IMG/VR virus record: IMGVR_UViG_3300029967_000119
Source of the DNA: an uncultured virus (IMG/VR IMGVR_UViG_3300029967_000119)
Taxonomy: Duplodnaviria; Heunggongvirae; Uroviricota; Caudoviricetes
Direction: 5' to 3' (one strand)
DNA: 20,000 nt
This document shows positions 2,928 through 20,000 of this stretch, one piece after another. Within the stretch, counting starts at the first letter, position 1, and each line of letters begins with the position of its first letter. Made by a program: the position numbers and the translations under genes. Under the pieces are notes generated by a model that did not search any database, was not told the origin of the DNA, and saw only the letters and a program-made list of their open reading frames with translations.

Positions 2928-4022
2928 TTATATGCTGTCTATTGAGTTGAGTGCTGTGAAATAGTTCTCATTGAGGGATTTGATCCGTTCCATCTGCCTC
3001 TCATCTGCATCTATAGATGAGATCAATGAAGACACAACATCTTTCAGAGAGACCTTCTCTATGTTGATGTCTAGTGTATCTGTGAGAGCTTTGCCATTGC
3101 TTCTCATGATGATTGACACTTTCTTGGCGCCTAAGTCTTGTATCTTCTTGTAGATTGTTGCCATGTTTGGTGTGTCATCTACAATGATGTCAACATAGTT
3201 GTGTGAGAAGATCTTCTTCAAGCTCTCATCATCCATCTTGGAGAACTCATCAAATGAGATCTGCAAGAAGAGTGGAGAGACTTTGTTCTCTTTGAATGCT
3301 GCTTTGCCTGTTGCAACTTCAAGGATATACACACCTTTCTCATTGCCAATGTCAGATCTGTTCAACTGGTATGGGCATCCAACATAAGTCACCTTCTTGG
3401 TCTGCTGCCTCTTGTGGATGTGCCCTGCATAGATGTGCCCAGTAAATGAATCTACATTGACTCCACTTATCACCTTCTGGTTGTTTGCATACTTCATCTT
3501 GTTGATGTCTGTGTGCATGAAAGCATAGTCAGCATTTGCATTCTCTACCAAACACTTAGTCTCTTCAGTTGCAGACCCAAGGTATGGGATTGCTATACCA
3601 ACTTTCCCTTCTGGGAAGTTGATCCTTGTCGGTGTACAAATCACAGTGACATTGGGGATGAACTCTAAGCTTTTGAGTGAAGTCACACCAACATTTGTGC
3701 GTCTGTACAAGTCATGGTTCCCGTTGATGATGACAGTTGGCAGCACTTCTGCAACTTCTGCAAACATTGTGATTGCAAAGTCATTGACTGCAAGGTTGAG
3801 GCTCTTTCTATCATCAAACACATCTCCAAGCACAAGCAGCCCAACCTTCTTCTGAGCTCTCTCTCCTCTCTTGACTTCTTCTTTGCAAAGTGAGATGAAG
3901 AAGCTGTCTGCCCACTCTTTCATGTTTGCCACTCACTCTTCACTAGAGCCTCTCACACCAAAGTGCAAGTCAGCTATCATCAAGACTGTGTCAAAGTTGA
4001 GATCTATTGTTGGCAATCCCAT
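2928..4022 (-). CDS. gp47: Recombination nuclease subunit (T4 gp47 / SbcD / Mre11-like metallophosphoesterase); one in-frame TGA at 3933-3935
   Basis: From ATG 4022: MGLPTIDLNFDTVLMIADLHFGVRGSSEE[TGA]VANMKEW..., then GDVFD, GNHD, FMHTD, AGHIH, VGCPYQ. Motif I (DLHFG) lies upstream of the TGA, so the track ORF 2928..3932 is truncated. Confidence 0.93.
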
Positions 4023-4025
4023 CTT

Positions 4026-4583
4026 CTAGAACATCTTATATGTTTTTGCAAAGTCCATTGCAGACACATGCATGCCATTCTCATATATGTCTTGGCAAAT
4101 CTCAGCAAGCATCTTTGGACTCAACACACTGCTCACGATGTACTCATAGCTGAAGTTGAAGAACTCATTTATAGCTATAGTTGCATTGAGCGCTGTCACC
4201 CCACTCATCTTCTCAAGCTTCTCCTTCACATAGTAGAACACTTCAAAGATGCTCTTCTTTGGTATCTTCTTTATAGTCCCATCAGGGTTTGTGTACTGCT
4301 CTCTGTATGGAGACTTCTTTCAAATCTCTAGCACCTGCAGAGATATGTCTTTCATCTCATCTTCATCATAGAGTGTCGGCTCATAGTCATCGACATACTC
4401 TGAAGCGAGCACTATCTTTGTGTTCCTAGCATAAGTCATGTCTACACTTGCATCAGTGTAAGCATGGAGAGACTTCATTGTGTTGATGCGCTTCCTCACA
4501 CTAGGATCAGGTGTGCCTTGTGCAGAAGAGTCTGCTGCAGCAAGCGACACATCTATGGTTGCATCAATTGATGGTTGTTCCAT
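4026..4583 (-). CDS. Hypothetical protein, 185 aa; one in-frame TGA at 4320-4322 joins two track ORFs
   Basis: 4320..4583 and 4026..4241 share a frame; the linker reads LEI[TGA]KKSPYREQYTNPDGTIKKIPKKSIFEVFYYVKEKL with no other stop. It fills the gap between gp41 and gp47. TAG stop. Confidence 0.8.
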
Positions 4584-4598
4584 TTGAAGTGTTTGATT

Positions 4599-6080
4599 TT
4601 AAGAAGCTTCAAACAAGTCTTGCCCAGATATCCTCAGCTCGCTGAGACCTAAGTTCGGCAGTTCTTGTTGCCCTTGTTGTTTAGGTTGCCCTACACTATT
4701 ATATTGTGGGTTTGCCAAAGCTGTCCATTTCTTTGGTATGTCCGTCCCTTCTACCACTATGTCTTCAGTCGTGTCTTCTGTGATCCTCAAGAACTTTTTG
4801 TCTACCACATACTTCTTCTTGTTTCCCATGGCATCACTGTTCCTCAGTGCTACAGCCTTGAGGTAGTAGACACCTTCTGCATTCATCACAGCTGTCTGGA
4901 TGATTCCAAACAGAGAGTCAACAGTCGCAATCAGGCCAGCAGACTCAGACACATTGCTCATGCTTATGTCAGTTGCATCAAATGCAGACCTGTTAGTCTG
5001 TGTCACTGACACGACACACCAGTTGTTCCGCTGAGACATTGCACGGACATCCTCACATATAGACTTTATCTTCTGGTATGTGTTCTCAGAGTTCGGGTTC
5101 TTGTAGTCTTTCATGATGTTGATGTAGTCAATGAAGACGTTGTCAAACTTGAAAGGCTTGTCTTCAGTTGAGAGCTCGGCTTCTTTCTTCAGTATGAAAG
5201 CTTCTATGTCATACACAGTCGCTGAAGATGTTGGAAACTCTTCAATGAAGAACTTTCCTGGCTTCTGGAATGAACCAGCTTTCTTTGCTTGGTACGCTGA
5301 GACTTTCTCTTTGAACTTCTCAATGTCTTGGACATAGTCTCTGTACTCTTTGATTGGTATGTCAAACAAGTTTGCGCCAATCCTCTGGTTCACAAGCTGG
5401 TATGACAGCTCAAGAGTTATGTACACAGTGTTGAGGCCGGAGTCGACTGAGTTCGCCGCCAAGTTGCAGAGCCACATCGACTTCCCGACCTTTGGCGACC
5501 CCATCAGCACATTGAGGGTCTTCTTTGCCCATCCACCATTCAATGCAATGTCCATGAACTTGTATCCTGTCGGCTTTGTGTCAAAAGTCTGCATCACATG
5601 GTTGTTGATGTCAAAGAAGTCATGTCCTTCTGTGCTGTCAAATGCAAAGCTTGCGTCTGCATTGAACATCGACTTCACCTTCTCTATGACTTCCTTGCAG
5701 TTCTCAAATGTGATGTCTCCTTGAGAAGTCTTTATGTATGCAAGCACCCTCTTCAACGAGCACATCAAGTTCTGCCATTCAGCATAAGCAGATGTGTTCT
5801 CTTTGAGCCACTCATCAGTATACTCATTGACTTTGCTCTCTGACTGCCAGATTGTGTGGATGATGTCATCAGTCAAGACCTCATCTTTGCCAGCTATCTT
5901 GACTAAGTCTATTGCCTGTGTCTCAGATGGCATTGACCTATATTCCAAGACATGCCCTTTGAGAATCTCAAACAGCTCTTGGATTGGCTGTGTGTTGAAG
6001 AACTTTCCCTTGAACTTTGCTGCAAGCTCTGGATGCTTCAGCACATAGAAGAAGATTATTGTCTCTAAGAATCCGTTCAC
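4599..6080 (-). CDS. gp41: Replicative DnaB-family (SF4) helicase, T4 gp41-like
   Basis: Walker A GSPKVGKS, YITLEL, Walker B FIDYINIM, VTQTNR, SESAGLIATVD; GTG start; TAA stop. Confidence 0.93.
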   Translation of the reverse strand: MNGFLETIIFFYVLKHPELAAKFKGKFFNTQPIQELFEILKGHVLEYRSMPSETQAIDLVKIAGKDEVLTDDIIHTIWQSESKVNEYTDEWLKENTSAYAEWQNLMCSLKRVLAYIKTSQGDITFENCKEVIEKVKSMFNADASFAFDSTEGHDFFDINNHVMQTFDTKPTGYKFMDIALNGGWAKKTLNVLMGSPKVGKSMWLCNLAANSVDSGLNTVYITLELSYQLVNQRIGANLFDIPIKEYRDYVQDIEKFKEKVSAYQAKKAGSFQKPGKFFIEEFPTSSATVYDIEAFILKKEAELSTEDKPFKFDNVFIDYINIMKDYKNPNSENTYQKIKSICEDVRAMSQRNNWCVVSVTQTNRSAFDATDISMSNVSESAGLIATVDSLFGIIQTAVMNAEGVYYLKAVALRNSDAMGNKKKYVVDKKFLRITEDTTEDIVVEGTDIPKKWTALANPQYNSVGQPKQQGQQELPNLGLSELRISGQDLFEAS

Positions 6081-6099
6081 CTTAAAAATTTCTGATCTA

Positions 6100-6130
6100 A
6101 GATTTTATGCCGGATGTGCTCAAAAGTCTC
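6100..6130 (-). promoter_or_regulatory. Putative early sigma70-like promoter for the gp41-gp47-gp46 unit
   Basis: Minus strand GAGACT(6130-6125)-N17-TAAAAT(6107-6102)CT; same architecture as the two sites at 11922-11984. Confidence 0.55.
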
Positions 6131-6150
6131 TGATGTCTGTTTCACTAGAC

Positions 6151-6174
6151 TGCAAAGTGATAAATATTGAAATG
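6151..6174 (+). promoter_or_regulatory. Putative late promoter (TAAATA core)
   Basis: TGCAAAGTGATAAATATTGAAATG, a near-copy of the 1234-1258 (-) element, directly upstream of a two-gene plus-strand unit. Confidence 0.7.
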
Positions 6175-6189
6175 CCAAAAAGTTGCCCA

Positions 6190-7620
6190 ATGGCAAGACA
6201 AATATTCGACACATCTTGGAACATAGACTTCAAAGGATACAATCCAGAGAATGGAGAGACAGCAGATGTAAAAGAGCTTGAATGGAGAGAGTTTGATGAT
6301 GCTGGAGCGGTAATTGACAGCAGCTACATCACTCCTAATGTCAACCTAGCAACTGTCTATGTTGAGGCAGATCCTGACAAGAATGGTGTCCCAACTAGAT
6401 ACTCATTCCAAGACTTCTTTGAGAACTTTGACAAAGACACTTCTAACCGATTCAGAGAGATAACCGAAGAGATTGAGACTAAAGTCAGGACAGCATATAA
6501 AGTCAAAGGCAACTCATACATTGACACAACTGGCACCGCTTCTGCTCCAAGCTTGTGGGACACATACATCAGTGCAGAGGCTGCTTCTAAGTCAGCAGCT
6601 GCATCACTTGCAAACCCTGTTGATGTCTCAGTTGGCTTTGTCTACAATGTGCTTGATGGGTCTATCCTGTTGCAAGTTGAAGCAGGTGACAACTATGTCG
6701 TGACGGGATATGACTCAAACAAGTCTGACTGAGGCAAGTGCATCAGTGTAGATGCAAATGGCAACAAAGATGGCAACACGATTGTCAGTAAGGCTGGTGT
6801 CATCCTTGACAACTTAGGCGGCCCAGTCGAGACACACATGACATTCAGGTGCACTAATGTAGCAAACTCTAGTGACTTGACTTTGAACAAGACTTACACA
6901 AATGCAGAGGTGACTGAGCTGCTTCAGCTCCTGCTCTCACCATATGTTCCACCTAAGAACTTGGTTGTGACTAGAAGCAACACCAACAATTTCTTGTTTG
7001 GGACAACTAACAGTGTATATCCAAGAGCAAAAGTGACTAAGGGAAGCGAAGACTTGACAACATACACATTCAATGGCACTCAAGGAACATTTGAGAGCGG
7101 CAATGCAAATGCAAGCGTTGGAGAAGATGCATCAATCAAAGGAGTTGCAGAAAGCATAAAAGACAACACAACATGGAAAGTTGTCATCTCTGATGGCCGC
7201 ACTACACTAGAGAAGTCTACATCAAGCCAGTTCTATTGGCCATACTATGTTGGCTTGATCACCAGTGAGCCACAGAATCTCACAGTTGCAGATCTTGGCA
7301 CAGGGTGCCTCACAACCGAGAAGACAATCACTCACACTGCAACTGTCAGCAAGACAACTAACCAATATTTCTGGATGGCAATTCCACGATTTGTCACCCC
7401 AACAGCGTGCAAAGGCGGCAAGAACTCTGGCTCTCTCACAAACTCTTATGATCTTGTAAAAGTAGTGAACAACTTAGAAGTCACATTAGGAGGAACTAAG
7501 TACTTGTACAATGTATGGACACCTACGGCTGAAGCACCAGTAGTTGCTGGCACCACAGCGTGCTTCCAATACACACTCAACCAAGACTTGAAGCTTGGCA
7601 CTAACAGGCCGACAGCATAA
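6190..7620 (+). CDS. Hypothetical, probably virion structural protein (about 476 aa); one in-frame TGA at 6730-6732
   Basis: Track ORFs 6133..6732 and 6838..7620 share a frame; linker DSNKSD[TGA]GKCISVDANGNKDGNTIVSKAGVILDNLGGPVETHMTF. Thr/Ser/Asn-rich, beta-strand-like C-terminal half. Start placed downstream of the TAAATA element (ATG 6190; 6172 is an alternative). TAA stop. Confidence 0.75.
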
Positions 7621-7643
7621 AAGACTACTAGACACTCAAAGAC

Positions 7644-9947
7644 ATGAGCACAAACAACATATTCTATCAGCTATACTCAAATGGCAAGCAGAGCTATGTG
7701 AGCTCCCAGTATGTCTGCTCAGATGCAGCTAATGAGGAAGGTACACAGTTCTCTATTGATGATGGCAAAGCAACTATAACAGACTCTGAAGGAAATGAGC
7801 TTGCATCACTTGACCTTTCAAGCGTGAGTGATGGCACTGATGGGATAACAGACTACAAGACTGAGACTAAGGTCTTGCCTGGTGGAAGTGCTCTGATGGT
7901 GCAAGGTCCAGACTTTGGGCTCTCTAATGAGACACAGTGCTTTGCAATCTGTGACACAATCTCTTCTGTAGATGACTTTGATGGCTATGTCAACGCAGAG
8001 CTTGACATCACAGTCGTGAGCAAGTTCAAGTGCAAGACAATCCATGTGAACACTGCTTCTGCCCGTGAAGCTGGGTCTTCCGAGTCAGTCATCGACTTGA
8101 TCAACAACATCTTATGCAAGTGGAACATACCGGTAGTTGCATCTCTCGAGTCTGTAGACACAGAGCTCTGCTGTGAGACTGACACAATCATCTACCTCAA
8201 GTTCATGTCTAACCAGCTCGGCTACTCATACAAGATAGACAATGTCGTGCTGAAGGCGATCTCACGGAGTGAGGACTTTCCAGACGCACCATTCGATGAC
8301 CCTACAGTCACTGTGCAAGATGTGCTTGACGCAATTGCATATGTCAGGCCAGAGAAGTGCAAGGTGCCAGAAGATGGGTGAGACACTTACTATGGTGAAG
8401 GCATTGTTCACTATGTCAACTCACTCACAGGTGAAGACATAGCAGATGCTTCTTCAAGCTGCATGATCCTCTTCAACATAGATCCAAGTAACTGGACAAA
8501 GTTCAAAGATGGCACAATCACAGTAGTTGCAAACTCTAGCTTGCTTGGTGCAAGTGCTTCTGTGCAAGGATCTGCATCACTCAATGAGACTTCTAAGTAT
8601 GTCAAAGGCAACATGCCAGAGATGTACTCCGAGTCTTCAGTCTACACAGTCTCACTCACACAGAATGTGTTCCCACAGAAGAGGGAAGGAGACACCGTGG
8701 TGGTAGATGCAAGCTTTGCATTCATTGATGGCTCTATATCTGTAGACGCTCCAATCAGGCTCTGCACATCATGGATGAATGGAGACCCAATGAGTGGCTA
8801 CGACATCATCATACCAAAGTACACAACTTTGATGCAGCTCACAGACTGGCAAGAGACACATGACACAGAGCCAGACACATCGACTGACTCTTCTGCTGGT
8901 GGCTGGATGGAGCTCTGGGATGACTGCTCTTGCAACTGTGATGGGTGTGACTCAAGCAACTCATCTTCTGGAAGCAACACTTCTTCTGGCAATGGCAGCA
9001 ACACAAAGCCATCAGACTCTTCTAAGTATGTCATCGATTGCTCTCTCTACATATACATCCTCAACAATGCTGGCGTAGGCATGCCAACTGCTGCCAAGTA
9101 TGAGAGCTTCAGTGATGCAAGTGTAGACCCAAGTGCTGGTGTCTTCTCTTATGTAGATGGTGGCTGGCTCTGGAACCCATCAGACATCTTTGATGTGTTC
9201 AAAGAGCTCATCGACCTGACCGGCCTCACAGACCCAGCAGATGCAAGTGCTTCACTCAAGTGTGAGCTCACAGAAGATGCAAGCCTCTATGTTGGGCCAT
9301 TGAAGTATCCAAACGGCTCAATGAGAGGCATTGTGATAGCTCCTTCGTATCCAGAAGGATATGTTGATGAATATGAGCCGCTGCAAGTAAATGTCATACA
9401 AGACAAAGTCAGCATCTATGAGAAGTTTGGAGACTGGGATGCAGATGGCAACCAGTCATTCATCTTAGGCAGAGATGCATGTGAGCGGTGTGATGGCAAC
9501 CTCATCCCACTCTACACAAAGAGAGACTTTGATGTGAGATGCTCACTCCAAGAGGAGCCAATGCACATGAGCATCCCAGACACAGATGACTCTAGCTGTG
9601 GATGTGACACAAGCACATGCCATGCACACTGCTGGCATGACATAGACATAGAGACTACTAGCGGGACAACTGCAAATGGGTCAAGTGCATGAGCAGACAA
9701 TGAGAGGGCCTTTGAGAGCTGGAGCACAATGTGCCAGTGCACATCTAGCACAGATGGCATGCTTGGCAAGTCCGGCTACCTCAGGTGGGTTGACCAGAAC
9801 GGCTGTTGGCTGAAGTTCAAGACACTCTTCGCAATTGTTGGAGGAAAGGACTCTGAGACAAGCGATGACAAGAGCCACATCAACAGCATCTGGATATACA
9901 ATCCGAATGATGTGCCGCTCAAGGTCAAGTACTTGATGTTTGCATAA
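7644..9947 (+). CDS. Large acidic, Cys-rich hypothetical protein (767 aa); in-frame TGA at 8379-8381 and 9690-9692
   Basis: Three track ORFs (7644..8381, 8463..9692, 9729..9947) share a frame; linkers PEDG[TGA]DTYYGEGIVHYVNSLTGEDIADASSSCMILF and GSSA[TGA]ADNERAFESWSTMCQC. TAA stop followed by a hairpin. Confidence 0.8.
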
Positions 9948-9948
9948 G

Positions 9949-10010: not shown

Positions 10011-11471
10011 TTAAGCTGAAGCATTCCTCTGCCGCTCTTCAAGGATGTGCTTGAGCTCTTCATACTCAGAGTTTGCTTGCTTCTTCATCTTCTTTGCTTC
10101 CTTTCTCTTCATGAAGAAGTCTTCAAGGATGTGTGGCAATATGCCTTGCTTCTCTTTAGAGTAGACACTACCAGATGAAGTCATGATCTCATTCTCTTTC
10201 AGCTTGTATGTCTTTGGATCATGCTTCCCAAGCCAAGTCTCTGGGGATATGTTGAACTGGCGCTGTGTAGTTGGGTACAGAGATGCAAAGTCAAGTGCAC
10301 CGACATACTTGAACACACCTGGCCGGCTAGGCCAGACAAATGCCCCTTCATAGTCTGCTACTGGTATGTCTTCTTTCTTCTTTGTTGGGATCACCTTGTG
10401 CTCTCTGTATGCATACTGGCACATCACTACTTCAGTCGGTGCTACAGTTGAGAATGCCATGTTCAAGTCAATCTTGAGCTCTGCTGCAATTGTGAACCAT
10501 ATCTTGGCAATCTGGAGCTTCTTGTCGATCTGCTCTACAAGTATGGTGTCAACTAAGTTGTAGAAGACATAGTCTTTGTAGAACTTGTCATAGAACTCTC
10601 CAAACCCAACTGAGTGCTTCACCTTCTTGACACCAAGCGACTTCTCTGCAACAAAGTCAAGAGTGTTGTTCTCTTTCACCTTGATGCTCTGGTCCCACTT
10701 GCGATACACCATCAAGTAGTCATATATGAGCTTGTGAAGCGGCACCATTGCATTTGCTTGGACTGACTTTGCATTTATGCTGACTTGCTTGAACTCATGT
10801 GTTGGGCTCACACTCTCTATGTCAATCCCAAGCTTCTTGCATCGGTTGTAGATATATGTCCAGTCATACTCAAGGAAGTTCCAGCCAGTGATTGCAGGCA
10901 TTGGCTTGATGTACTCAACAAAAGCTTGGAGCATCATTGCTTCATTTGGATACTCACAATACTCAAACTTGTAGTCATGCGTCAAGTCTGAGTATGTCTC
11001 AAGCTTCTCTTGGATGTACTTGAGCTCATCTTCAGTGAGAGGCTTCTTCCCAAAGCAGACAGTGTTTGGATACTTAGTTATTGCAATCGTGTTGATCTCA
11101 TTGTCTGCATCCTCTGGACTTGAGAATCCCTCATCACTCACGGCTGTCTCTATGTCACAGAACCAAGTCTTTGGGGTGTTCACCTCAAACATTGGGTTGA
11201 TGTAGTCACCAAATGAGCAAAGTATCTCATTGAGCCTCATCTCATTGAGAGACTTTGTTGGGTACTTTGTCACAAACTTGTTGTCATAGCTCTTCCAGTA
11301 TGGATCTGCATTCTTCCTTGTGCTGTACTTCCATGCAAACATCTGCTCAAACGGGACCTTGTAAGTCAGATATGAGATGTTGCCTTCTTTGTTCACATAA
11401 GAGATTATGAGCTCTTTAGTCAAGTTCCCATTGTCATCTATGCAATCTCTCTGCTGCTTTGAAACTATCAT
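10011..11471 (-). CDS. Family B DNA polymerase, N-terminal half (3'-5' exonuclease plus motif A); split gp43-like
   Basis: ExoI CDIET, ExoII GWNFLEYDW, ExoIII YNLVDT, YEGAFV, motif A DFASLYP, NISPET, KQGILP..LEDFFMKRKEAK, then TAA. No YGDTDS motif C and no thumb domain. Confidence 0.92.
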   Translation of the reverse strand: MIVSKQQRDCIDDNGNLTKELIISYVNKEGNISYLTYKVPFEQMFAWKYSTRKNADPYWKSYDNKFVTKYPTKSLNEMRLNEILCSFGDYINPMFEVNTPKTWFCDIETAVSDEGFSSPEDADNEINTIAITKYPNTVCFGKKPLTEDELKYIQEKLETYSDLTHDYKFEYCEYPNEAMMLQAFVEYIKPMPAITGWNFLEYDWTYIYNRCKKLGIDIESVSPTHEFKQVSINAKSVQANAMVPLHKLIYDYLMVYRKWDQSIKVKENNTLDFVAEKSLGVKKVKHSVGFGEFYDKFYKDYVFYNLVDTILVEQIDKKLQIAKIWFTIAAELKIDLNMAFSTVAPTEVVMCQYAYREHKVIPTKKKEDIPVADYEGAFVWPSRPGVFKYVGALDFASLYPTTQRQFNISPETWLGKHDPKTYKLKENEIMTSSGSVYSKEKQGILPHILEDFFMKRKEAKKMKKQANSEYEELKHILEERQRNASA

Positions 11472-11492: not shown

Positions 11493-11897
11493 TTATGCTT
11501 CCTTCTTCACCAATGTCACAAATGGACATGTTATGTATGCATTTGCAATGATGTAGTCCTTGAAGAACTTCCTGAACCTCTCCCAAGCTTCTTCACCCTT
11601 GACAAGTATGTCAAAGAATGGCCGATGCTCATAGTCTGTCTCCTGCCCAAGCTCGTACCAGTCTGCAAGCCTTGGGCTTTGGTACACCACATCAAGGAGA
11701 GAGTCATCTTCATTGACTGTAGATGCAGAGCCTATCTCTCCAGTGGTAGGAATCTCTTGTGCAAGCGCTTGCAAGAAGCTGTCAATCTCGTCATCAGATG
11801 AGACTTGCACAGAGACTAGGAAGCCAGGAGCGTCTTTGTTGATTATGAAGTCCTCATATCTAGTGTCTGACTTGAATGTTGTGTTCATCACTCTCAT
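11493..11897 (-). CDS. Hypothetical protein (134 aa)
   Basis: Fills the space upstream of the polymerase on the same strand; ATG start, TAA stop; preceded by a promoter-like motif. Confidence 0.75.
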   Translation of the reverse strand: MRVMNTTFKSDTRYEDFIINKDAPGFLVSVQVSSDDEIDSFLQALAQEIPTTGEIGSASTVNEDDSLLDVVYQSPRLADWYELGQETDYEHRPFFDILVKGEEAWERFRKFFKDYIIANAYITCPFVTLVKKEA

Positions 11898-11921: not shown

Positions 11922-11984
11922 AGATTTTAAGAGAATCTATGTGGCAAGTCTTTGTGACATGGGCAGCTTGCTTGCATAAAATCT
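11922..11984. promoter_or_regulatory. Back-to-back divergent sigma70-like promoters
   Basis: Minus: AAGACT(11952-11947)-N17-TAAAAT(11929-11924)CT. Plus: GTGACA(11954-11959)-N17-TAAAAT(11977-11982)CT. Confidence 0.6.
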
Positions 11985-11986
11985 GC

Positions 11987-13780
11987 ATGGAGAAGTTTGA
12001 AGACATAAGAGTCAATGTTGAGAGCTGGGCTAAGCAGCACCTAGACAAAGAGTTCCAGTTCAGAGAGTACCAACTTGACATCATCACTTCTATCATATAT
12101 AGGATAGTCAATGACAACACACAGACACAGATAGTTGAGGCGCCTACTGGCTCAGGCAAGTCTATACTCTGCATTGTTACAGCAGGTGTCCTTGCAGAGC
12201 ACTATGGCAAGACTTCATACATCCTCTGCTCAGACTTGTATCTCTGGTCGCAGTATGAGGCATTCATATCAAAGAATGGGTTGCCATTTGGAGCACTGAA
12301 AGGGCAGTCAGGCAACTATGTCTGTGAAGCAAATGGCCTTGATGTGAAGCTTGGTGCATGCAAGATTGAGAGGATTTCATGGGGGCAACTCTACAAGAGA
12401 GACCAAGCCACAAAGCTAGGATATGCTTGTGCAGATTGCTGTGAGTATGTGCTAGCTAGGAGGAGGGCCCATGAGAGCAAAGTCTGCTTGATGACATACC
12501 AGCTCTGGCTGTATCAGATGAATGTCGTGAAGAGTGAGAATGGCAAGAAAGAGTTCAGCTCAAGAGATGTGCTGTTCTGTGATGAGTGCCACAACGTGCC
12601 AGAAATAGTGTCAAGCTTCTCATCGCCAGTCGTGAGCCCACAGAGAGACTTCCCACACTTGTGTGAGCTCTGGAAGCTTATGCAAGGCAAGCTTGATGAC
12701 AATGCTGTGGCCGATGAGATGCTTGAGAAGCTCCAAGCATCATTCAATGATTTGTGGAATGCAGAAGAAGACCAAGAGGTCTATGCTGCTTTCAGCAAGT
12801 ATGCAAGCTATGTGATGAGCCTGCCTACACTTGACACATGCACAGACATGGTCCTCAACCTGTCTAAGTCAAAGAGGCTCTCTAAGAAGCAGATGCACTT
12901 GCTGCAAGATGCTGATTATGTCTGCTCACTCAGGAGCAGGATAGAAGACTTCTTGGTGTCAGTTGGTGATGGAGGAATTGAGACATTAGCTAAAGACAAC
13001 AGCTTGAGCAAAGATGGGCACAAGTCAGTCACACTCTCATGTGTGAAAGAAGACTATCTCTGCAACAAGTATCTCTTTGGCAACACCAAGCATGCTGTGA
13101 TGATGAGTGCAACAGTCGGCCAGAAGGATGCATTTGATGAGAATGTCGGCATTGCACTCACAAGGTCTCAAGACAGCATCATGATGCGGGTGCCTTCTAC
13201 ATTTGACTTCACAAAGTCTCCAATCTACTCATCAAGCAAGTGCTCGATGGCTCTGAAGCACCTTGCACAGAGCTTTCCAAAGGTTGCAGACATGGCTTTC
13301 AAGCTGATGTGCCTCCACAGAGAGCAGCATGGCATCATACAGACCGGGTCATACAAGCTAGCGATGCAGTTGTATGACATTGCTTCTGAAGAGTGCAAGG
13401 CTAGGATGTTGCTCTACAGTGGCAACATAGAGAAGCAAGAGATGATTGCCAAGCTGAGGAGCACTCCTGGGCTTGTGCTTGTTGGCCCGACTCTCCTTGA
13501 AGGGATCGACCTGCCTGGTGACTTGTGCAGGTTCATCATCATAATGAAAGTGCCATTTCCAAACTTGGGCTCTGAAGCGACAAAGAAGAAGCTCAAGCTG
13601 TTCCCAAAGTGGTATGAAGGCAAGGCAAGCATGGGCATCTTGCAAGGCATAGGCCGTGGCAACAGATATAGAGAAGACTGGTGTGTGACTTACATACTTG
13701 ACTCTTGTTGGAGAAGGCTCTATGCACAGCACAAGGATGCATATCCCAAAGAGTTCCAAGAGCGGGTGAAGTTCATCTAG
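11987..13780 (+). CDS. DinG/Rad3(XPD)/YoaA-family SF2 helicase with a putative Fe-S cluster
   Basis: Q-motif FREYQ, Walker A APTGSGKS, Cys cluster NYVC..GAC..ACADCCEY, DECHN, MSAT, EGIDLPGD.CRFIIIMKVPFP, QGIGRGNRYREDW, ILD. Start placed at ATG 11987 (MEKFEDI); the upstream extension in the track overlaps the promoters. TAG stop. Confidence 0.92.
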   Translation: MEKFEDIRVNVESWAKQHLDKEFQFREYQLDIITSIIYRIVNDNTQTQIVEAPTGSGKSILCIVTAGVLAEHYGKTSYILCSDLYLWSQYEAFISKNGLPFGALKGQSGNYVCEANGLDVKLGACKIERISWGQLYKRDQATKLGYACADCCEYVLARRRAHESKVCLMTYQLWLYQMNVVKSENGKKEFSSRDVLFCDECHNVPEIVSSFSSPVVSPQRDFPHLCELWKLMQGKLDDNAVADEMLEKLQASFNDLWNAEEDQEVYAAFSKYASYVMSLPTLDTCTDMVLNLSKSKRLSKKQMHLLQDADYVCSLRSRIEDFLVSVGDGGIETLAKDNSLSKDGHKSVTLSCVKEDYLCNKYLFGNTKHAVMMSATVGQKDAFDENVGIALTRSQDSIMMRVPSTFDFTKSPIYSSSKCSMALKHLAQSFPKVADMAFKLMCLHREQHGIIQTGSYKLAMQLYDIASEECKARMLLYSGNIEKQEMIAKLRSTPGLVLVGPTLLEGIDLPGDLCRFIIIMKVPFPNLGSEATKKKLKLFPKWYEGKASMGILQGIGRGNRYREDWCVTYILDSCWRRLYAQHKDAYPKEFQERVKFI

Positions 13781-13794
13781 AGTGGCAAGAGCCA

Positions 13795-13812: not shown

Positions 13813-13826
13813 TTTGGAGAGGGCTC

Positions 13827-14543
13827 TTGTTCTTCGAGTATTCAATAGATGACAAAAGCACAGTCACTGATCCTTCTGGCAACCAGCTCAAGGACCTGAC
13901 TATTTGTGTCTTCAAGAGAGATGCTGCTGAGCTCTCTGGAGCAAGCTATGTCAGGGTCTCTGACTCTTTTGACATGCGGCCAGACTTAGTCTCTATCATG
14001 GAGTACAGGGACAGTGGTGAAGGCACCGAGATGATCTTGAAGTACTCTGGCATCAGCAACCCATTCTCACTCTGTGATGATGATGTGCTCAGGATCCCTG
14101 ACTACTCTATGGCAATAGCTAATGTCTACACTGTCACTTCTGACACTAATGATGCTTCTAGCATGCATGAGCAGCTCATCAAGAACTACTACAAGTTTGC
14201 AGTCACAGACTATGATGGGTCTCCATCAAAGAGCTTGAAGGCACTCATGGACACAAAGATCCCATCTGGCAATGTCAACAAAGATGCTGTGACTTCAGGC
14301 TCTACACCTTATGTGAACACTGCTGGCGGCCAAGCGGTCACAATCAAGAATGGCAAGATCTACTTTGGTGACGGTGTAGCAACAAGTGCTGACCAATATG
14401 CTTCTGCAAAAGATGTGACAAGCGATGATGTGAACAACATGATCTCTTCTATAGTCGCATCTACAAGCTCTCCATTTGATGAGATGTGCATCTTCAACGG
14501 CACTAAAGTCGCAGCTATAGAGCGAGAAAACTACAAGAACTAG
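13827..14543 (+). CDS. Baseplate wedge protein, T4 gp53 / LysM-like N-terminal domain
   Basis: RPDLVSIMEY...MILKYSGISNPFSLCDDDVLRIP matches the RPD..S...Y....ILK.N.I.NPF.L..G..L.IP pattern of gp53-like proteins. TTG start after GGAGAGGG; TAG stop. Confidence 0.7.
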   Translation: MFFEYSIDDKSTVTDPSGNQLKDLTICVFKRDAAELSGASYVRVSDSFDMRPDLVSIMEYRDSGEGTEMILKYSGISNPFSLCDDDVLRIPDYSMAIANVYTVTSDTNDASSMHEQLIKNYYKFAVTDYDGSPSKSLKALMDTKIPSGNVNKDAVTSGSTPYVNTAGGQAVTIKNGKIYFGDGVATSADQYASAKDVTSDDVNNMISSIVASTSSPFDEMCIFNGTKVAAIERENYKN

Positions 14544-14736: not shown

Positions 14737-15753
14737 ATGAAAATCAAAAAGTATAGCAGGGGCGATGTGACAACCACAACGCCGAAGTTCACAAAGAAAT
14801 GCTATGAGAAGATGGAGCTCTTGCAGAGGATTGCAGGTGCTACAAGTAGTGGCTTCATAAGGATATTCAAGAAGTCATCTAGCAACCCAACACCTTCTCC
14901 AGAGCCAACTCCTACCCCAACACCAGAGCCAACGCCATCTGATGTCACAAAGAAGTCAGCTGGCACTAAGGATGAGTTCAAGGACATCATCAAAGAAGCT
15001 AAGGCAGCTAACAAAGCCGGTACACCTATCGAGAACTTAGAGCTGACAATCTCTGAAGACATAGACTGTGGTGGCAAGCCAGGAGACTACTCGACAAAGT
15101 TCTACCTCAATGCCAAGAACACAACACTTGATCTCAATGGCAAGACTATGTCTAACTTTGACAGGATCTCTACCAACCTTGATGGGGCAGCCTTGACAGT
15201 GAAGAATGGCAAGATCAAGGATGGGTGTGTGATGACTAATGCAGACAATGTCACACTCATCCTTGAGGATGTCGAGATTGAGAGCACCCAAGACTTTGGT
15301 GTATGCACATATGGCATGAATGTAGGTGTCAATGCAACTGTGAAGGACTGCTCCATAACTGCTCTCTACACTGCAATCTATTGCACCTCTAAGCCCGGCC
15401 AGGATATCCTTGGCACCCTCACAGTAGAGAACTGCACTCTGACTTCTACTGATGAGACCCCAATCGCTCTCAAGAAGTGCAATGCAACAGTCACGAACTG
15501 CACACTTGAGTCTAAGTTTGCTCCACAGGAATACAAGAAAGTTGGATCTAATGGAACGAATGGATTTGGATATGGTGTGTCATTTGAGACTTACAGTGAT
15601 GCATCAGTCCCAGCAGAAGGAAGCTTGAAGCTTGAGAACACAACGATCAAAGTCGCTGACACCACGACTGGATATGAGATATTCAACTACCTTGGTGGTG
15701 CGGCAATCACTTCAGACAAAGAGTTCAAGACTACGACTGAGCTGACTGCATAA
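14737..15753 (+). CDS. Protein with a Pro/Thr linker and a probable right-handed beta-helix (pectin-lyase-like) domain
   Basis: PTPSPEPTPTPTPEPTPS linker; TLDLNGKTM; repeated strands LTVKNGKI, LILEDVEI, ATVKDCSI, LTVENCTL, ATVTNCTL, LKLENTTI. Start position uncertain. TAA stop. Confidence 0.65.
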   Translation: MKIKKYSRGDVTTTTPKFTKKCYEKMELLQRIAGATSSGFIRIFKKSSSNPTPSPEPTPTPTPEPTPSDVTKKSAGTKDEFKDIIKEAKAANKAGTPIENLELTISEDIDCGGKPGDYSTKFYLNAKNTTLDLNGKTMSNFDRISTNLDGAALTVKNGKIKDGCVMTNADNVTLILEDVEIESTQDFGVCTYGMNVGVNATVKDCSITALYTAIYCTSKPGQDILGTLTVENCTLTSTDETPIALKKCNATVTNCTLESKFAPQEYKKVGSNGTNGFGYGVSFETYSDASVPAEGSLKLENTTIKVADTTTGYEIFNYLGGAAITSDKEFKTTTELTA

Positions 15754-15777
15754 GCAAGGTGCAGCTTAATGACATGA

Positions 15778-15811
15778 AAAGGATGCAACTAAGTTGCATC
15801 CTTTATTTTTT
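15778..15811. terminator. Bidirectional intrinsic terminator between convergent genes
   Basis: 12-bp stem AAAGGATGCAAC / GTTGCATCCTTT with loop TAA, followed by a T-tract; it overlaps the TAA (15803-15805) that is reached only by TGA readthrough. Confidence 0.8.
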
Positions 15812-17563
15812 GATTCCACATGCCTTGAGAGCATCATCTGGAACTATGTCTATGAGCCTCCTCAACTTCAGGTCATTTACCACTTCTCACATCTTGTGCC
15901 TTGTGTATGCAATGAACTCTTTGTCATTCCTCTTGAGAGCATCATGCCAGAGTGCATACATTGCAAAGAACCTTCCTTTGAGCCTTGTCTTTGTGCTCAT
16001 GCCTTTTCCGAGAGATCCGGCTCTCCTTGCATCATGGTTCACACCATTCCAGCTCATGACTCTGTAGTCCTTTGCAAAGAATGACAACATCTCACTGAAC
16101 ATGTTGTCTTCACCTAAGACATAGTTCTTCTTTGGCATCCAACCTATCTCCGATGGCTCTACAAACCTTATCTGATGGCTGTCTAAGAAGCTTTTCTTCA
16201 CAAGCTTGCACCAGCAATAGACTCAGAGGGTGTTCCTCCAGTTCACATCCACTCTCATCTCCTCTGCCTCTGCTCTGTCAGGGTTGCCAATGTCATTGTA
16301 GTTGAAGACCTCTGTAGAAGGATTCTCTCTGACAGACTCAGCTGCATTGAGCAGCATAGTTGGAAGGACTTCATCATCACAGTCAAGGAAAGCAGTATAC
16401 TTCCCTCTCATCTGCTTGAGACCAACATTGCGAGCGACTGTGTTGCCTGCATTCTTCTGGTGGATCACCTTGACATAGCTGCACTTCTTTGCAAGCTCAT
16501 CAGCTAGCTTTGGTGTCTCATCTGTTGCACCATCATCTACAATGATGCACTCAAAGTTCTGTTGTGTTGCACCTCTGAGATTGGCTATGCTAGCTAAGCA
16601 CTTCTTGTAGAGCTCAAGTGGTGTGTTCCATGAAGGGATGATGAGTGACACAAGTGGAGAGGTCCACTCTTTGAGCCATTGCTCTGTCTCAGAAGTCCAG
16701 ATGTCTCTGTAGTCAGGATCTTGCTCTCTTGTGCCTTTGACTGTGTGCCTTGGCTTGCTGTGCTTCTCAAGGTGCAAGCCCATGTCTCCTTGCACTAACA
16801 TAGGCTTGGAGATTGGCAGCTCACTGTACTTGATGCCAAGCTTCCAGCAGCAGAAGTCGAATGACATCTGGTCTCTCCAAGAGAATCTCTTCACCTCTTC
16901 TGCCCACATGTCTTCAAGCTCTGCAACCTTCTGGCACTTCTTCCTGATGAACACACAAGTCTCTGCAAGGCCAGATGCAGGTGGAAGCCCTGCAACTCTA
17001 TACCTTGCAACTTGCTTGTTGATTGTGTCTCAGCTGTCTAGCTTGAGCCTCTTGATTTCAAGAGCCTCTTCATAGATGTCATCTCTCTCAGTGTGCTTGC
17101 GCATCCACAAGAACTGGCTTTGGCTCTTCTTCATGACGCTCTCAAGCCACCTCTTCACTTGCTTCTCTATCTTGACTCTGCCATCTATCCAGATAATGAC
17201 ATCATACTCTGGAAGGAGCTTGTGTGATAGAATCTTCACACACCGCTGCTGTCGGACTTTGTCTAGTTGCTGGAGCTCTTCAGGAATTGGCTTCACTTTC
17301 CATGCAGAACCCTTGCTGACTCTAGACTGGTCATCAGTGAAGAGCACATAGTCAGCATCTTTCTCTACAACTGGCTCTCTGACTGTGTCATATCTACCAG
17401 TGATGCATGTATAGATGCACCATCTCAATAGACTTGATTGCTGTGCTGGATGCTTTGATGATGCTAATGGCCTGGAGACAATCTTCTTAGTCTTGACTTT
17501 CAAAACTCTATGTCTGTGCTCAACTGGCTTTTGGACACAGAATGCTTTGTTCACTCCAGACAC
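15803..17563 (-). CDS. Two-domain glycosyltransferase: DUF616 (TOD1/MUCI70-like) fused to GT2; three in-frame TGA (17030, 16223, 15887); about 586 aa
   Basis: Three track ORFs in one frame. DUF616 motifs IYTCITGRYD, LFTDD, KILSH, IWIDG, KHTERDDIYEEA, [TGA], LAETCVFIR, RDQMSF. GT2 motifs VSLIIPSWN, IIVDDGATD, ARNVGL, FLDCDD, [TGA]VYCWCKLVKKSFL, GEDNMF. Ends KM[TGA]EVVNDLKLRRLIDIVPDDALKACGIKK-TAA at the terminator. GTG start uncertain. Confidence 0.87.
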
Positions 17564-17587
17564 TTAGTTTGGTTCTCTGCTAATTTT

Positions 17588-17977
17588 TTAAAGAGAAGCT
17601 TCTTCAGAGGTCTTCTTCTTTCTTCCACCACGCTTCTTTGGCTCTGCTGGCACTTCAACAGGCTCAGCTCCACCAAGGACTTCTATTGGTGCCTCAACAG
17701 ACTCTATGCACTCATCCTTTCCAGAGAGCTCATCTTCAAGAGCTTTCACTTCAACTGTCTCATCTGGTGTGATGACTGCATTGTTGTTAACTTCTTCAAC
17801 TGCTTCTGCAACATCCATGTTGAGATCCACAGCACAAGAGATGACTGCATTCTCAGATGCACCTTCTGCTTCTTTCTTCTCTGGCTCTTCCTTAGATGGT
17901 TTATTCTTGGTAGCATATATTGGATATACATGCACTCGTGTAGCAGTGCGCCCTATATAAAGGTTCCTTCTTACCAT
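17588..17977 (-). CDS. Hypothetical acidic low-complexity protein with a basic C-terminal patch
   Basis: 129 aa, E/A/V/P-rich, ending PKKRGGRKKK; lies between same-strand neighbours; TAA stop. Confidence 0.65.
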   Translation of the reverse strand: MVRRNLYIGRTATRVHVYPIYATKNKPSKEEPEKKEAEGASENAVISCAVDLNMDVAEAVEEVNNNAVITPDETVEVKALEDELSGKDECIESVEAPIEVLGGAEPVEVPAEPKKRGGRKKKTSEEASL

Positions 17978-17990
17978 AATTCTTTCTAGA

Positions 17991-18200
17991 TTACTTTATT
18001 ACATTATATTTCATGTCAAAATCCTCATCACTCTGTGTGAGATAGAGTATGCCTTCTACAAGAGCAACAAGAGATGGGATGCCTGTCCAACAGAATAAGA
18101 TGTAGAGAATCCCAAGGCCCACATGCCCAAGATAGAAGTGGTGTATGCCAATGCCTCCAAGAAGGATAGCAAACAGACCAGCTGCAATCTTTGATTTCAT
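17991..18200 (-). CDS. TM2-domain small membrane protein
   Basis: MKSKIAAGLFAILLGGIGIHHFYLGHVGLGILYILFCWTGIPSLVALVEGILYL is the canonical TM2 pattern. GGAGGA Shine-Dalgarno at 18215-18210 supports ATG 18200. Confidence 0.92.
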   Translation of the reverse strand: MKSKIAAGLFAILLGGIGIHHFYLGHVGLGILYILFCWTGIPSLVALVEGILYLTQSDEDFDMKYNVIK

Positions 18201-18227
18201 TAAAAACAATCCTCCAAAAAATTTAAA

Positions 18228-18273
18228 TATTTATATGTGTTTAGGGTATCATAGCACTCCTAGGCAATAAATA
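18228..18273. promoter_or_regulatory. Divergent putative late promoters
   Basis: Perfect T4 late consensus TATAAATA on the minus strand (18235-18228) and ATAAATA on the plus strand (18267-18273), facing the TM2 unit and the fibre gene respectively. Confidence 0.6.
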
Positions 18274-18304
18274 CAAGTATATTAAATTTCACAAGAAGAA
18301 ATAG

Positions 18305-20000
18305 ATGGCTGAGTTTATAGTTGGGACTGGTTCTCCAGTATATGCTTCAATGCTTGAATATGCTGCACATCTTCCACTTGATGCAAAGTCAATAGCAAAC
18401 ACTTCAATAGAGCTATATCAACGCAAAAATGCATATGAAGGTGAATGGGTATATGCAAAAGACACTCACAAATTCTACTATTGCAAAGCGGCCACAGATA
18501 AAGGCTCAACTTGGAAAGAGTATGACGCAAGAGACATAAGCCTTGGAGCAGACATACCAAGCTCTAGATATACTAAGGCAATGAGCTTGTATGATGTCAT
18601 CTACAACATAGACTCTTCAATCAAAGCTAACAAAGATACTTTTGATGACCTCTCTACATATGTGTATGTCACAGTAGATACAAGCATCTTTGACATAAGC
18701 AACAGGCTGAATGACACATCTAACAGACTCAATGACACTTCTAATAGATTAAATGACCTTTCTACTTATGTAAGAGTTACAGTAGACACAAGCTTGTTTG
18801 ATATAAGCAATAGGCTCAACAATACAAGCAATAGGTTGAATGATATGTCGACCTACATTGACACGAACGTCAACAGCTCGATCAAGAACATCTCGACCTA
18901 CATCCACAAGACAGTTGACAATTCAATCTACAACTTGTCGACCTACATTGACACGAACGTCAACAGCTCGATCAAGAATGTGTCAAGCTATGTACACAAC
19001 CAGGTTGACACATCTATCAAGCGACTCAACAGCTCAGTCTCTAACTTGTCGACCTACATTGACACGAACGTCAACCCGTCTATCCTGAACATCTCGACCT
19101 ACATCCACAAGACAGTTGACACTTCAATCTACAACTTGTCGACCTACATTGACACGAACGTCAACAGCTCGATTAGAGACATATCTAACAATCTTGCATC
19201 TTCAGTCAAGTCTCTTACAGACAAGATTAACAGCAATGGCACAGATACACAAGCTAAGATAGACACTATAAACTCTCATCTCACTGCACTTGACTCATCA
19301 AGCAAAGTGACTATGACAGTCTCTAACCCAAGCAACTCTTCTCTTGCAGCGACATATACGCTCAAGCAAGGCACAACTACACTTGGCACAATATCAGTTC
19401 CTAAAGACACTTGGCTCAAAGGTGGTGAAGTCTCCACACACTCTGATGGTGTGAAGTATCTTGACTTGACTCTCTATGTCTATGACCCAGACTCTGGCAC
19501 CTCAACAAATGGAACTGTGAGCATACCACTCACCGACCTTGTAGATGTCTACACAGGAGCAAAGAGCTCAACGACTACTACATCTGTGAGTGCATCTAAT
19601 GTCATCACAGTTGAAGTGAATGCAAGCAACACTGCTACACTTAATGGAACTGCATATGTCTACAATGGCTCTGTTGCTAAGTCATATAGTTGGTACGCTC
19701 CAACTACTGCCGGAACTGCTGGATATGTGCTTGTAGCTGGAGCAGGTGGAACTAACACTCCAGGATGACAAAGTGTTGCAACTGCTGGATTGAGGGGCTA
19801 CCAAGGCTACCAAGGCCGTCAAGGCCCTACTGGCCCACAAGGACCACAAGGCAGGCAGGGATACCAAGGCCCACAAGGCCCTACTGGCCCACAAGGACCA
19901 CAAGGCAGGCAGGGATACCAAGGCCCACAAGGCCCTACTGGCCCACAAGGACCACAAGGCAGGCAGGGATACCAAGGCCCACAAGGCCCTACTGGCCCAC
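18305..20000 (+). CDS. Long fibre-like virion protein: coiled-coil repeat stalk then collagen repeats; in-frame TGA at 19766-19768; continues beyond the window
   Basis: After the TGA the frame continues GTNTPG[TGA][35 protein letters not shown]... with no stop to the edge. Confidence 0.85.
18647..19177 (+). repeat. Intragenic 45-nt (15-aa) and 21-nt (7-aa) repeats
   Basis: Nine 15-mers of type [15 protein letters not shown] / [15 protein letters not shown] interleaved with DTSNRLN-type heptads; TGTCGACCTACATTGACACGAACGTCAAC occurs four times. Confidence 0.9.
19820..20000 (+). repeat. Perfect 54-bp tandem repeat encoding collagen-like [18 protein letters not shown]
   Basis: Units start at 19820, 19874, 19928 and 19982 (the last is truncated by the window edge). 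Confidence 0.95.

Follow-up and report, generated by a model that had tools for sequence, protein, structure and literature searches.

The named phages nearest to the locus described here are the Prevotella Lak megaphages, for which the order 'Grandevirales' has been proposed (Crisci et al., 2021, PMC8346664; Cook et al., 2024, PMC11165621). In Lak phages TAG codes for Gln and the GC content is 26–31% (PMC8346664), and the recoding of TAG has been stated to be conserved in all of them (PMC8346664; PMC11165621). Recoding of TGA to Trp is likewise already known in phages. Gut phages of this kind belong to several clades, Jade and Agate among them, and the preprint that describes them also reports clades in which codes 11, 15 and 4 occur side by side as well as phages of standard-code hosts that are only partly recoded; in the text available, Lak is not mentioned as using TGA (Borges et al., bioRxiv 10.1101/2021.08.26.457843). 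A validation study of recoding names code 15 alone in its abstract.

The stretch of DNA analysed here, referred to as the window, comprises 20,000 nucleotides of an uncultured virus (IMG/VR record IMGVR_UViG_3300029967_000119) and holds 16 genes, six of which are listed first:

1262..2920, minus strand: Rad50/SbcC-like ATPase (gp46-like), free of TGA, ending in TAA; matches phrog_77
2928..4022, minus strand: Mre11/SbcD-like nuclease (gp47-like), 364 aa under code 4, ending in TAA; Pfam Metallophos at residues 13–204, phrog_100 at 6–350
4026..4583, minus strand: 185-aa protein between helicase and nuclease, ending in TAG; homologues in 15 Lak records and in the contig fragment L019
4599..6080, minus strand: DnaB-like replicative helicase, free of TGA, ending in TAA; Pfam DnaB_C, phrog_19
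10011..11471, minus strand: family B DNA polymerase, N-terminal part only, free of TGA, ending in TAA; DNA_pol_B_exo1 and the start of DNA_pol_B, phrog_2062 at residues 100–500 of 502
11939..13780, plus strand: helicase (ResIII/Helicase_C_2, Pfam and PHROG matches), free of TGA, ending in TAG

The SbcC/SbcD-like pair, the DnaB-like helicase and the family B polymerase correspond to the gp46/gp47, gp41 and gp43-type module of T4-like phages, which use the standard code. The initial annotation had called the phage T4-related, which is right as to the kinds of proteins but too coarse, as Rad50 and the polymerase are only 26–29% identical to T4-like (cyanophage, enterobacterial) records, whereas amino acid identity to Lak phages reaches 45% for Rad50, 52% for the N-terminal part of the polymerase and 39–45% for the 185-aa protein. 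In quick trees of two proteins, with SH-aLRT as the only support measure, the window lies inside a clade that also holds Lak-type contigs, both for Rad50 (SH-aLRT 99, 10 rows) and for Mre11 (SH-aLRT 97, 47 rows), and stands on a long branch by itself, separate from the Lak-type subclade. Window and Lak phages have in common that a stop codon appears to be recoded. They differ in which one, since the window would read TGA as Trp while TAG never occurs in frame and terminates three genes, and also in GC content (44.8% in the window). The Lak genomes measure 476–660 kb, as against the 20 kb available here.

Stop codons and in-frame TGAs in the window

Nine TGA codons, with lowest plus-strand coordinates 3933, 4320, 6730, 8379, 9690, 15887, 16223, 17030 and 19766, lie in frame in six of the 16 genes, the other ten being free of TGA. 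All nine positions had been given in the initial annotation and were re-derived from the sequence, as was the observation that every TGA connects two stop-free stretches of the same frame. Among the 6415 codons of the 16 genes neither TAA nor TAG is found in frame, and the 14 genes that end inside the 20-kb window terminate with TAA (11) or TAG (3) and never with TGA, a tally that came out the same on recounting. TGA occurs 203 and 397 times in the two off-frames of the same genes. Counted as a Trp codon, TGA stands beside 79 TGG codons and thus makes up 9 of 88.

The ten TGA-free genes served as the training set for codon frequencies, with which the coding character of the sequence around each TGA was assessed over up to 60 codons on the 5' and on the 3' side. 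All 18 flanks score best in the frame of their TGA, an outcome with a chance probability of 3e-9. A crude greedy cover of the window by open reading frames is 0.899 with TGA as a stop and 0.955 with TGA as a sense codon, and the mean open reading frame of that cover lengthens from 316 to 425 aa. As the cover also increases, to 0.934, when TAG is read through instead, this measure by itself does not single out TGA.

In code-4 phages the recoded codon would be expected to concentrate in structural and lysis genes. The window has no clear late-gene bias. Its replication-module genes contain 2 TGA and 32 TGG versus 7 and 47 in the other genes (Fisher p = 0.47, window only), so that the idea of a late-gene switch is unsupported by these 20 kb.

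The residue at the TGA sites

What is the residue inserted at these codons? Family or homologue matches cross seven of the nine TGAs, no homology being found across residue 200 of a 495-aa protein and residue 559 of a glycosyltransferase. The homologue columns are informative, and point to Trp, at three sites; they are variable without a Trp signal at four (residue 246 of a 767-aa protein and residues 178, 447 and 559 of the glycosyltransferase), and two sites are without homologues. The informative sites and the proteins newly concerned are the following:

3933..3935, minus strand: in-frame TGA at residue 30 of the nuclease (SSEE-W-V); homologue column all W
4320..4322, minus strand: in-frame TGA at residue 88 of the 185-aa protein (LEI-W-KK); homologue column available
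7644..9947, plus strand: 767-aa protein, ending in TAA; 124 representatives at E<=0.001
8379..8381, plus strand: in-frame TGA at residue 246 of the 767-aa protein; homologue column variable
9690..9692, plus strand: in-frame TGA at residue 683 of the 767-aa protein; homologue column mostly W

The nuclease has 294 homologues at E<=0.001. In an alignment of 37 of them Trp occupies the column of residue 30 in 35 of 35 full-length sequences, the two left out of the count being truncated fragments with gaps at this position. A Trp in the SxEW position of gp47 homologues, noted in the initial annotation, is therefore borne out by the alignment. In the 185-aa protein, which has no Pfam or PHROG family match, residue 88 corresponds to W in Lak-B5 and Lak-C1 and to Y in L019. 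Of the 18 homologues aligned at residue 683 of the 767-aa protein, 16 have W, one has Y and one R; 13 rows have a gap. The other assignments that could be imagined for TGA are glycine, as in code 25 of Absconditabacteria and Gracilibacteria phages, and selenocysteine, for which TGA is the codon. Phages using code 25 have been reported (Borges et al., bioRxiv 10.1101/2021.08.26.457843). Yet the three informative columns contain neither Gly nor Cys (W 35/35; 16 W, 1 Y and 1 R of 18; 2 W and 1 Y of 3), the Rfam scan at E<=1 yielded no SECIS-type match, and the nine sites fall in six unrelated proteins, and a residue other than Trp thus appears extremely improbable. The earlier preference for code 4 over code 25 is upheld by these columns, Gly being found in none of them.

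A different possibility would be that translation does end at the TGAs in genes that are split or decaying, or that these codons are assembly or sequencing errors of TGG, from which TGA differs by a single transition. Code-11 gene callers did in fact deliver separate pieces (P0001, P0211, P0218, P0222 and P0227). However, a stop at residue 30 would deprive the nuclease of its metal-binding motif I, DLHFG, which is encoded 5' of TGA30, with the remaining protein 3' of it, and which in homologues is part of the same polypeptide; the separation of this motif from the rest of the nuclease had been seen in the initial annotation. Many homologues of the 767-aa protein are likewise single proteins, of 500–926 aa, that run across both sites, and three matching stretches flank the two TGAs. 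Real stops or errors would also sit poorly with 18 of 18 flanks coding in the TGA frame and with nine nonsense changes that are all TGA when TAA and TAG are absent from 6415 codons.

Moreover, the same truncated frames recur in several assemblies. P0001, 99.7% identical to the nuclease, comes from a 3,647-base contig and starts at M34 just past the TGA, and P0335, a nuclease fragment identical to the window by eye, is recorded from two contigs, one of 78,451 bases. P0211, from a relative with no more than 81% identity, retains the stop at residue 246 of the 767-aa protein: it is 245 aa long and terminates exactly at the TGA246 of the window. Three code-11 gene calls of a 55–81% identical relative cover residues 1–245, 255–401 and 480–594 of the 767-aa protein; they probably stem from one contig, as each has a longest contig of 11,808 bases. 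Another contig on record for the relatives measures 13.6 kb. The three pieces end at TGA246 and directly before W402 and W598, both encoded by TGG in the window, and the probability that three of three ends fall by chance on the 16 Trp positions is 9e-6. The breaks in the relatives are known as stops from protein records, which do not establish that these stops are TGA. Judged from these sequences, TGG and a recoded stop would appear to take each other's place at identical Trp sites in closely related phages, as true synonyms should. Genuine stops or errors consequently seem very improbable, and reading TGA as Trp is preferred.

The remaining TGAs lie in three further genes:

6133..7620, plus strand: 495-aa protein, ending in TAA; no relatives found
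6730..6732, plus strand: in-frame TGA at residue 200 of the 495-aa protein; supported by the codon scores of its two flanks only
15803..17563, minus strand: fused TOD1/MUCI70-like and GT2 glycosyltransferase, 586 aa, ending in TAA; PF04765 at residues 53–243, PF00535 at 306–416
17030..17032, minus strand: in-frame TGA at glycosyltransferase residue 178, inside TOD1/MUCI70; the domain match runs through
16223..16225, minus strand: in-frame TGA at glycosyltransferase residue 447, within the latter half of the GT2 fold; spanned by a phrog_22739 match (305–467)
15887..15889, minus strand: in-frame TGA at glycosyltransferase residue 559, 27 codons before the TAA; codon score only
18305..19999, plus strand: collagen-like tail fibre gene, running off the window; phrog_5073 at residues 459–564, phrog_819 at 235–565, Pfam Collagen at 510–564
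19766..19768, plus strand: in-frame TGA at fibre residue 488 (PG-W-QS), just 5' of the collagen repeats; spanned by tail-fibre profiles

The two-domain make-up of the glycosyltransferase is found again in P0121. Two of its TGAs had been placed inside DUF616 and GT2 domains. For TGA178 this holds, TOD1/MUCI70 being the DUF616 of the initial annotation, while TGA447 lies 31 residues past the Pfam GT2 envelope, yet within the phrog_22739 match. Only two homologues cover residue 178, both with P, and the residue at this TGA is therefore not informed. The column of residue 447 is variable, and a conserved W451 and a nearly invariant D486 of the GT2 homologues follow 3' of the TGA. The alignment at residue 559 is poor (W 2, Y 1, I 1, gaps 19), and the glycosyltransferase could alternatively end at this TGA. 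For the 495-aa protein neither a family, nor a homologue among proteins of 272–867 aa, nor a match among phage records was found. In the fibre gene TGA488 precedes the in-frame collagen repeats, as initially annotated; by reading of the sequence the G-X-Y repeats exist in the frame of this TGA only, and under code 11 they would require a TTG start eight codons on. The fibre has a weak match to Lak at residues 180–310, away from TGA488.

Considering the Trp columns at three of nine sites and the code-11 frames of relatives that break at Trp positions, TGA is almost certainly a sense codon for Trp in this phage, as initially proposed. Its use as a minority synonym of TGG, in a genome whose genes end only in TAA or TAG, is very likely the best explanation of the observations.

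Host code and decoding machinery

How might TGA be read as Trp in the infected cell? Provided that TGA is Trp, it is somewhat more probable than not, by analogy with the code-4 gut phages, that a suppressor borne by the phage acts in a host of standard code. In this model, for which the phages of Borges and colleagues are the template, the host would use the standard code and the machinery for reading TGA would be encoded elsewhere in the phage genome. The machinery would most likely be a Trp-charged suppressor tRNA with anticodon UCA, perhaps with release factor 1 in a helping role, and the TGA-containing genes would therefore be made in full only once it is expressed. A suppressor tRNA with this anticodon is given for 35% of code-4 genomes (Borges et al., bioRxiv 10.1101/2021.08.26.457843). 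Neither a suppressor tRNA nor RF1 nor TrpRS can be seen in the 20-kb window; a tRNA gene search of it gave none, and a scan against Rfam (E<=1) gave no tRNA match and none above noise, so that the decoding machinery is unseen in this stretch, which also holds no terminase gene. The tRNA search was equally negative in seven related loci and in the whole L019 record.

Alternatively, the host itself could use code 4, as do Mycoplasma, Spiroplasma and others, in which case the phage would simply share the code of its host and need neither a switch nor machinery of its own. The lack of a suppressor tRNA in the window would agree with this, as would the finding that 22 of the 27 database phages for which table 4 was predicted are viruses of Mycoplasma or Spiroplasma (Cook et al., 2024, PMC11210395). 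The composition of the window, however, speaks for a standard-code host, with TGA merely 9 of 88 Trp codons, ten of 16 genes free of it and 44.8% GC. Hosts using code 4 are generally AT-rich and prefer TGA over TGG. Furthermore, the nearest named relatives infect Prevotella, the host given in the Lak records, and the Rad50 clade is of mixed code, including TAG-recoded and standard-code members. A code-4 host is accordingly regarded as improbable, and a standard-code host is the preferred setting.

A TGA-reading branch beside the Lak megaphages

Members of the Rad50 clade vary, showing recoding of TAG, recoding of TGA, or none. A further TGA-recoded relative, L019, is a fragment of IMG/VR contig IMGVR_UViG_3300001598_000072 (49.6 kb, CheckV completeness 15%). 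It has the same gene order of helicase, 185-aa protein, Mre11 and Rad50 as the window, 22 in-frame TGA versus 32 TGG, and 13 of 13 long open reading frames ending in TAA. It differs from the window in its GC content of 24%, in a protein identity of only 33–41%, in branching outside the clade of window and Lak, and in the position of its nuclease TGA, which lies at another site and aligns with Tyr. The 673-kb contig of the loci L005 and L006 has no stop codon recoded. L005 had been considered as TGA-recoded and was rejected, since two of its genes plainly stop at TGA and the seemingly in-frame TGAs lie in doubtful open reading frames at one end. Searches for closer relatives yielded little: the phage collection contained no near match to the window, viral_contigs lacked an exact 40-mer and gave no relatives in scans with the helicase and the 767-aa protein, metagenome_contigs returned nothing for a Rad50 scan or an exact 36-mer, and genome_contigs returned only three matches, from Bacteroidales, at 30% identity.

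With the code-4 gut phages (Borges et al.) the window shares in-frame TGAs aligned with Trp, the abandonment of TGA as terminator, a partial recoding that touches only some genes, and probably a large genome, and it differs from them in that its replication proteins are nearest to Lak. The initial annotation had suggested an undescribed lineage. TGA-to-Trp gut phages having been published (the same preprint), this kind of recoding is not itself new; what stands of the suggestion is that Lak phages are described as users of TAG. With about as much confidence for as against, the window may represent an undescribed lineage of 45% GC that uses TGA as Trp and is nested in the huge-phage radiation holding the TAG-to-Gln Lak phages, with neighbouring branches that recode TAG (Lak-type), TGA (the lineage of the window and, separately, L019) or nothing (L005/L006). 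It would extend a known pattern rather than open a new one, because clades of mixed code have been reported (Borges et al.).

The practical consequence concerns annotation. The standard code cuts six genes of the window into pieces, and such fragments are already present in public gene calls; annotation of the lineage therefore needs code 4. For the biology of these phages, the window would be a TGA-reading branch beside the TAG-reading Lak megaphages. If this is true, stop-codon capture would be a repeated and labile event in the radiation that holds Lak, whose branches would provide natural contrasts for studying the mechanism and causes of a code change in phages.

In-frame TGA codons and the genes that carry them

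With TGA read as sense, the window (44.8% GC, no N) holds the following 16 genes:

2-1195, minus strand: collagen-like tail fibre, partial
1262-2920, minus strand: Rad50/SbcC-like ATPase
2928-4022, minus strand: Mre11/SbcD-like nuclease
4026-4583, minus strand: 185-aa protein
4599-6080, minus strand: DnaB-like helicase
6133-7620, plus strand: 495-aa protein
7644-9947, plus strand: 767-aa protein
10011-11471, minus strand: family B DNA polymerase, N-terminal part
11493-11897, minus strand: 134-aa protein
11939-13780, plus strand: helicase
13827-14543, plus strand: 238-aa protein
14737-15753, plus strand: beta-helix protein
15803-17563, minus strand: fused TOD1/MUCI70-GT2 glycosyltransferase
17588-17977, minus strand: 129-aa protein (putative gene)
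TM2-domain protein
18305 to window edge, plus strand: second collagen-like fibre

Recomputation reproduced all nine in-frame TGA codons of the initial annotation (3933, 4320, 6730, 8379, 9690, 15887, 16223, 17030 and 19766), which are spread over six genes, and its stop usage also held, the 14 genes that end within the window using TAA (11) or TAG (3) and none TGA. Over the 6415 codons in these genes TGA occurs nine times in frame and TAA and TAG not at all; the two other frames contain 203 and 397 TGAs. TGA is thus strongly avoided in frame but does occur, which is what a rare sense codon should show. With codon frequencies from the ten TGA-free genes, stretches of at most 60 codons 5' and 3' of each TGA were scored in three frames, and TGA's own frame scored best in 18 of 18 flanks (chance, 3e-9). 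Greedy ORF cover, a crude measure, rises from 0.899 under code 11 to 0.955 with TGA read-through, and mean ORF length from 316 to 425 aa; on 20 kb this cover discriminates poorly, since TAG read-through also gives 0.934. The base 3' of the in-frame TGAs is a purine in eight of nine cases (G seven times, A once) and C in the ninth.

The two collagen-like tail-fibre genes, one per window end, are distinct, and the one at 18305-19999 begins with a long N-terminal stretch of short tandem peptide repeats of the NRLNDTS and [12 protein letters not shown] types, followed by the collagen part. The most TGA-rich gene, with three TGAs, is the glycosyltransferase, which combines a TOD1/MUCI70-like (DUF616) domain and a GT2 glycosyltransferase in a single chain; the sole protein found to share this make-up, P0121, is 27% identical. 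The family B polymerase gene reaches its TAA after 486 aa. Besides the exonuclease domain it includes 135 positions from the start of the polymerase domain, and it matches nearly all of the 502-position profile phrog_2062, and matches from Lak phages, the Prevotella megaphages known for reading TAG as Gln, cover the same range (1-484). No C-terminal half adjoins the gene, and the polymerase seems to be split between two genes set apart. Two ORFs without a family match, of 159 aa at 17510-17989 (plus strand) and 129 aa at 17588-17977 (minus strand), overlap on opposite strands; the latter was entered as the putative gene.

The residue read at TGA

Which amino acid stands at these positions in homologues? 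The nuclease has 294 homologous proteins at E<=0.001, and in 37 aligned sequences, chosen among the 120 matches listed, residue 30 is W in all 35 full-length rows, within the motif S-E-E-W, the other two being truncated gene calls. For the 767-aa protein an exhaustive profile-free search yielded 124 representatives, 31 of which were aligned. Residue 683 is gapped in 13 rows, and among the other 18 it is W in 16, Y in one and R in one; the stretch around residue 246 is variable and gap-rich and does not inform the residue. The 185-aa protein is matched by 15 Lak records; TGA at residue 88 stands against W in the two that were aligned, Lak-C1 and Lak-B5, and against Y in L019, a fragment of IMGVR_UViG_3300001598_000072. 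The Trp that the initial annotation placed in the SxEW position of jumbo-phage gp47 homologues thus holds for the nuclease. The glycosyltransferase columns are variable: both rows that reach residue 178 have P there, 447 shows a mixture, and at 559, 27 codons upstream of the TAA, gaps predominate; profile matches continue through 178 and 447, and the nearly invariant D486 is located beyond TGA447. Tail-fibre profiles span fibre residue 488, and the downstream collagen G-X-Y repeats share the frame of the TGA. The 495-aa protein found no relatives among homologues of 272-867 aa or in phage records, and for its TGA and the last one of the glycosyltransferase, both without homology across the site, the codon score is the sole support. 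Gly, the reading under code 25, was rejected as it is absent from every informative column. The W columns, the flanks and the lack of TGA terminators all support the initial reading of TGA as a sense codon for Trp, and TGA must, with very high probability, be translated in this way.

TGG and a stop are exchanged among relatives. The hits to the 767-aa protein include three short gene calls from closer relatives. P0211 (245 aa, 81% identical) stops precisely where the window has TGA246, P0222 (149 aa, 55%) spans 255-401 with its end immediately before W402, and P0218 (118 aa, 74%) spans 480-594, carries three further residues and terminates immediately before W598, W402 and W598 being TGG in the window. 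In each case the longest contig measures 11,808 bases, which makes a common origin from a single gene probable. All three internal ends fall on Trp positions, of which there are 16 among 767 residues (chance, 9e-6), and the stops there would be TGA. Among nuclease relatives, P0335 is by eye identical to residues 34-364 (2 contigs, the longest of 78,451 bases) and P0001 differs from the window protein by one residue (contig of 3,647 bases); both begin at M34, the first ATG downstream of the nuclease TGA. For P0002 (89% identical) and P0336 the contigs measure about 13.6 kb. The recurrence of broken frames across several assemblies and several divergence levels argues against assembly error.

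Affinities with the Lak megaphages

Among 50,697 phage records there is no near DNA match. Prevotella Lak megaphages supply all of the best named protein matches (Rad50, 44.6-44.9%; polymerase N-terminal part, 50.9-51.8%; 185-aa protein, 39-45%), followed by huge metagenome phages (27-35%) and T4-like phages and cyanophages (26-29%). A scan of IMG/VR that used the aligned nucleases found 61 loci, of which the closest (38-44%) are on contigs up to 673 kb; most have 25-29% GC and a jump in ORF cover under TAG read-through, which is the Lak pattern. In quick maximum-likelihood trees with SH-aLRT support only (Rad50, 28 rows; Mre11, 63 rows), the window's Rad50 falls into a 10-row clade (support 99) with Lak-type loci, TAG-recoded loci of 27-28% GC, L005 (40% GC) and L015, with L019 as sister of the clade. 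In the Mre11 tree the window and P0002 (support 100, stem length 0.9) join P0003-P0005 (support 94), and this group is nested in a 47-row clade (support 97) containing all Lak-type loci, with L019 outside. The window is a member of a wider radiation around Lak and not Lak proper; it shows neither the TAG recoding nor the 26-31% GC (Crisci et al., 2021, PMC8346664) of Lak phages.

Which codes do its neighbours use? L019 is TGA-recoded, with 22 in-frame TGAs vs 32 TGGs and TAA ending 13 of 13 long ORFs (1-21050), and like the window has the gene order helicase, 185-aa protein, Mre11, Rad50. This fragment has 24% GC, and its phage is probably huge, since CheckV puts the 49.6 kb at 15% completeness. 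L005 and L006 (33-kb and 673-kb contigs in IMG/VR) represent a 40% GC relative in the window's Rad50 and Mre11 clades; in L005 TGA is the stop of at least two genes (1-21101). Since L005/L006 appear to use the standard code, the clade holds TAG-recoded, TGA-recoded and unrecoded members.

Decoding of TGA and place among recoded phages

No tRNA gene and no Rfam match above noise was found in the 20 kb, nor any tRNA across the whole L019 record. In their preprint Borges et al. (bioRxiv 10.1101/2021.08.26.457843) describe a TGA suppressor tRNA as detectable in 35% of code-4 genomes, RF1 and TrpRS beside lysis genes in two Jade phages, and a concentration of recoded codons in genes for structure and lysis. 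If the window's phage resembles those phages, a UCA suppressor that it encodes probably decodes TGA in a host on the standard code. A host natively on code 4 is less favoured, as TGA makes up only nine of the 88 Trp codons and is missing from ten of 16 genes, and as Lak records name Prevotella hosts. Within the window a late-gene bias of TGA finds no support (TGA/TGG 2/32 in replication-module genes vs 7/47 elsewhere; p = 0.47). In the replication cluster one TGA falls in the nuclease and one in the 185-aa protein.

A phage with TGA recoded to Trp is a known kind of system. The same preprint reports such recoding in uncultured phages and clades mixing codes 11, 15 and 4, and in Cook et al. (2024, PMC11210395) table 4 is the predicted code of 46 gut vOTUs and of 27 database genomes. 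A jumbo phage survey (2026, PMC13037316) includes a screen for TGA recoding, and the abstract of Peters et al. (2022) names code 15. A second study (Cook et al., 2024, PMC11165621) argues for a new order partly from the conservation of TAG recoding in Lak phages and leaves undecided whether all megaphages are recoded. In the literature searched, which for Borges et al. comprised the preprint text, no description of a TGA-recoded Lak relative was found, and the window lineage appears new among the sequences and literature searched. The window provides a well-supported TGA case that is relevant to annotation, and with it a TGA-reading lineage stands alongside the Lak phages, which read TAG.
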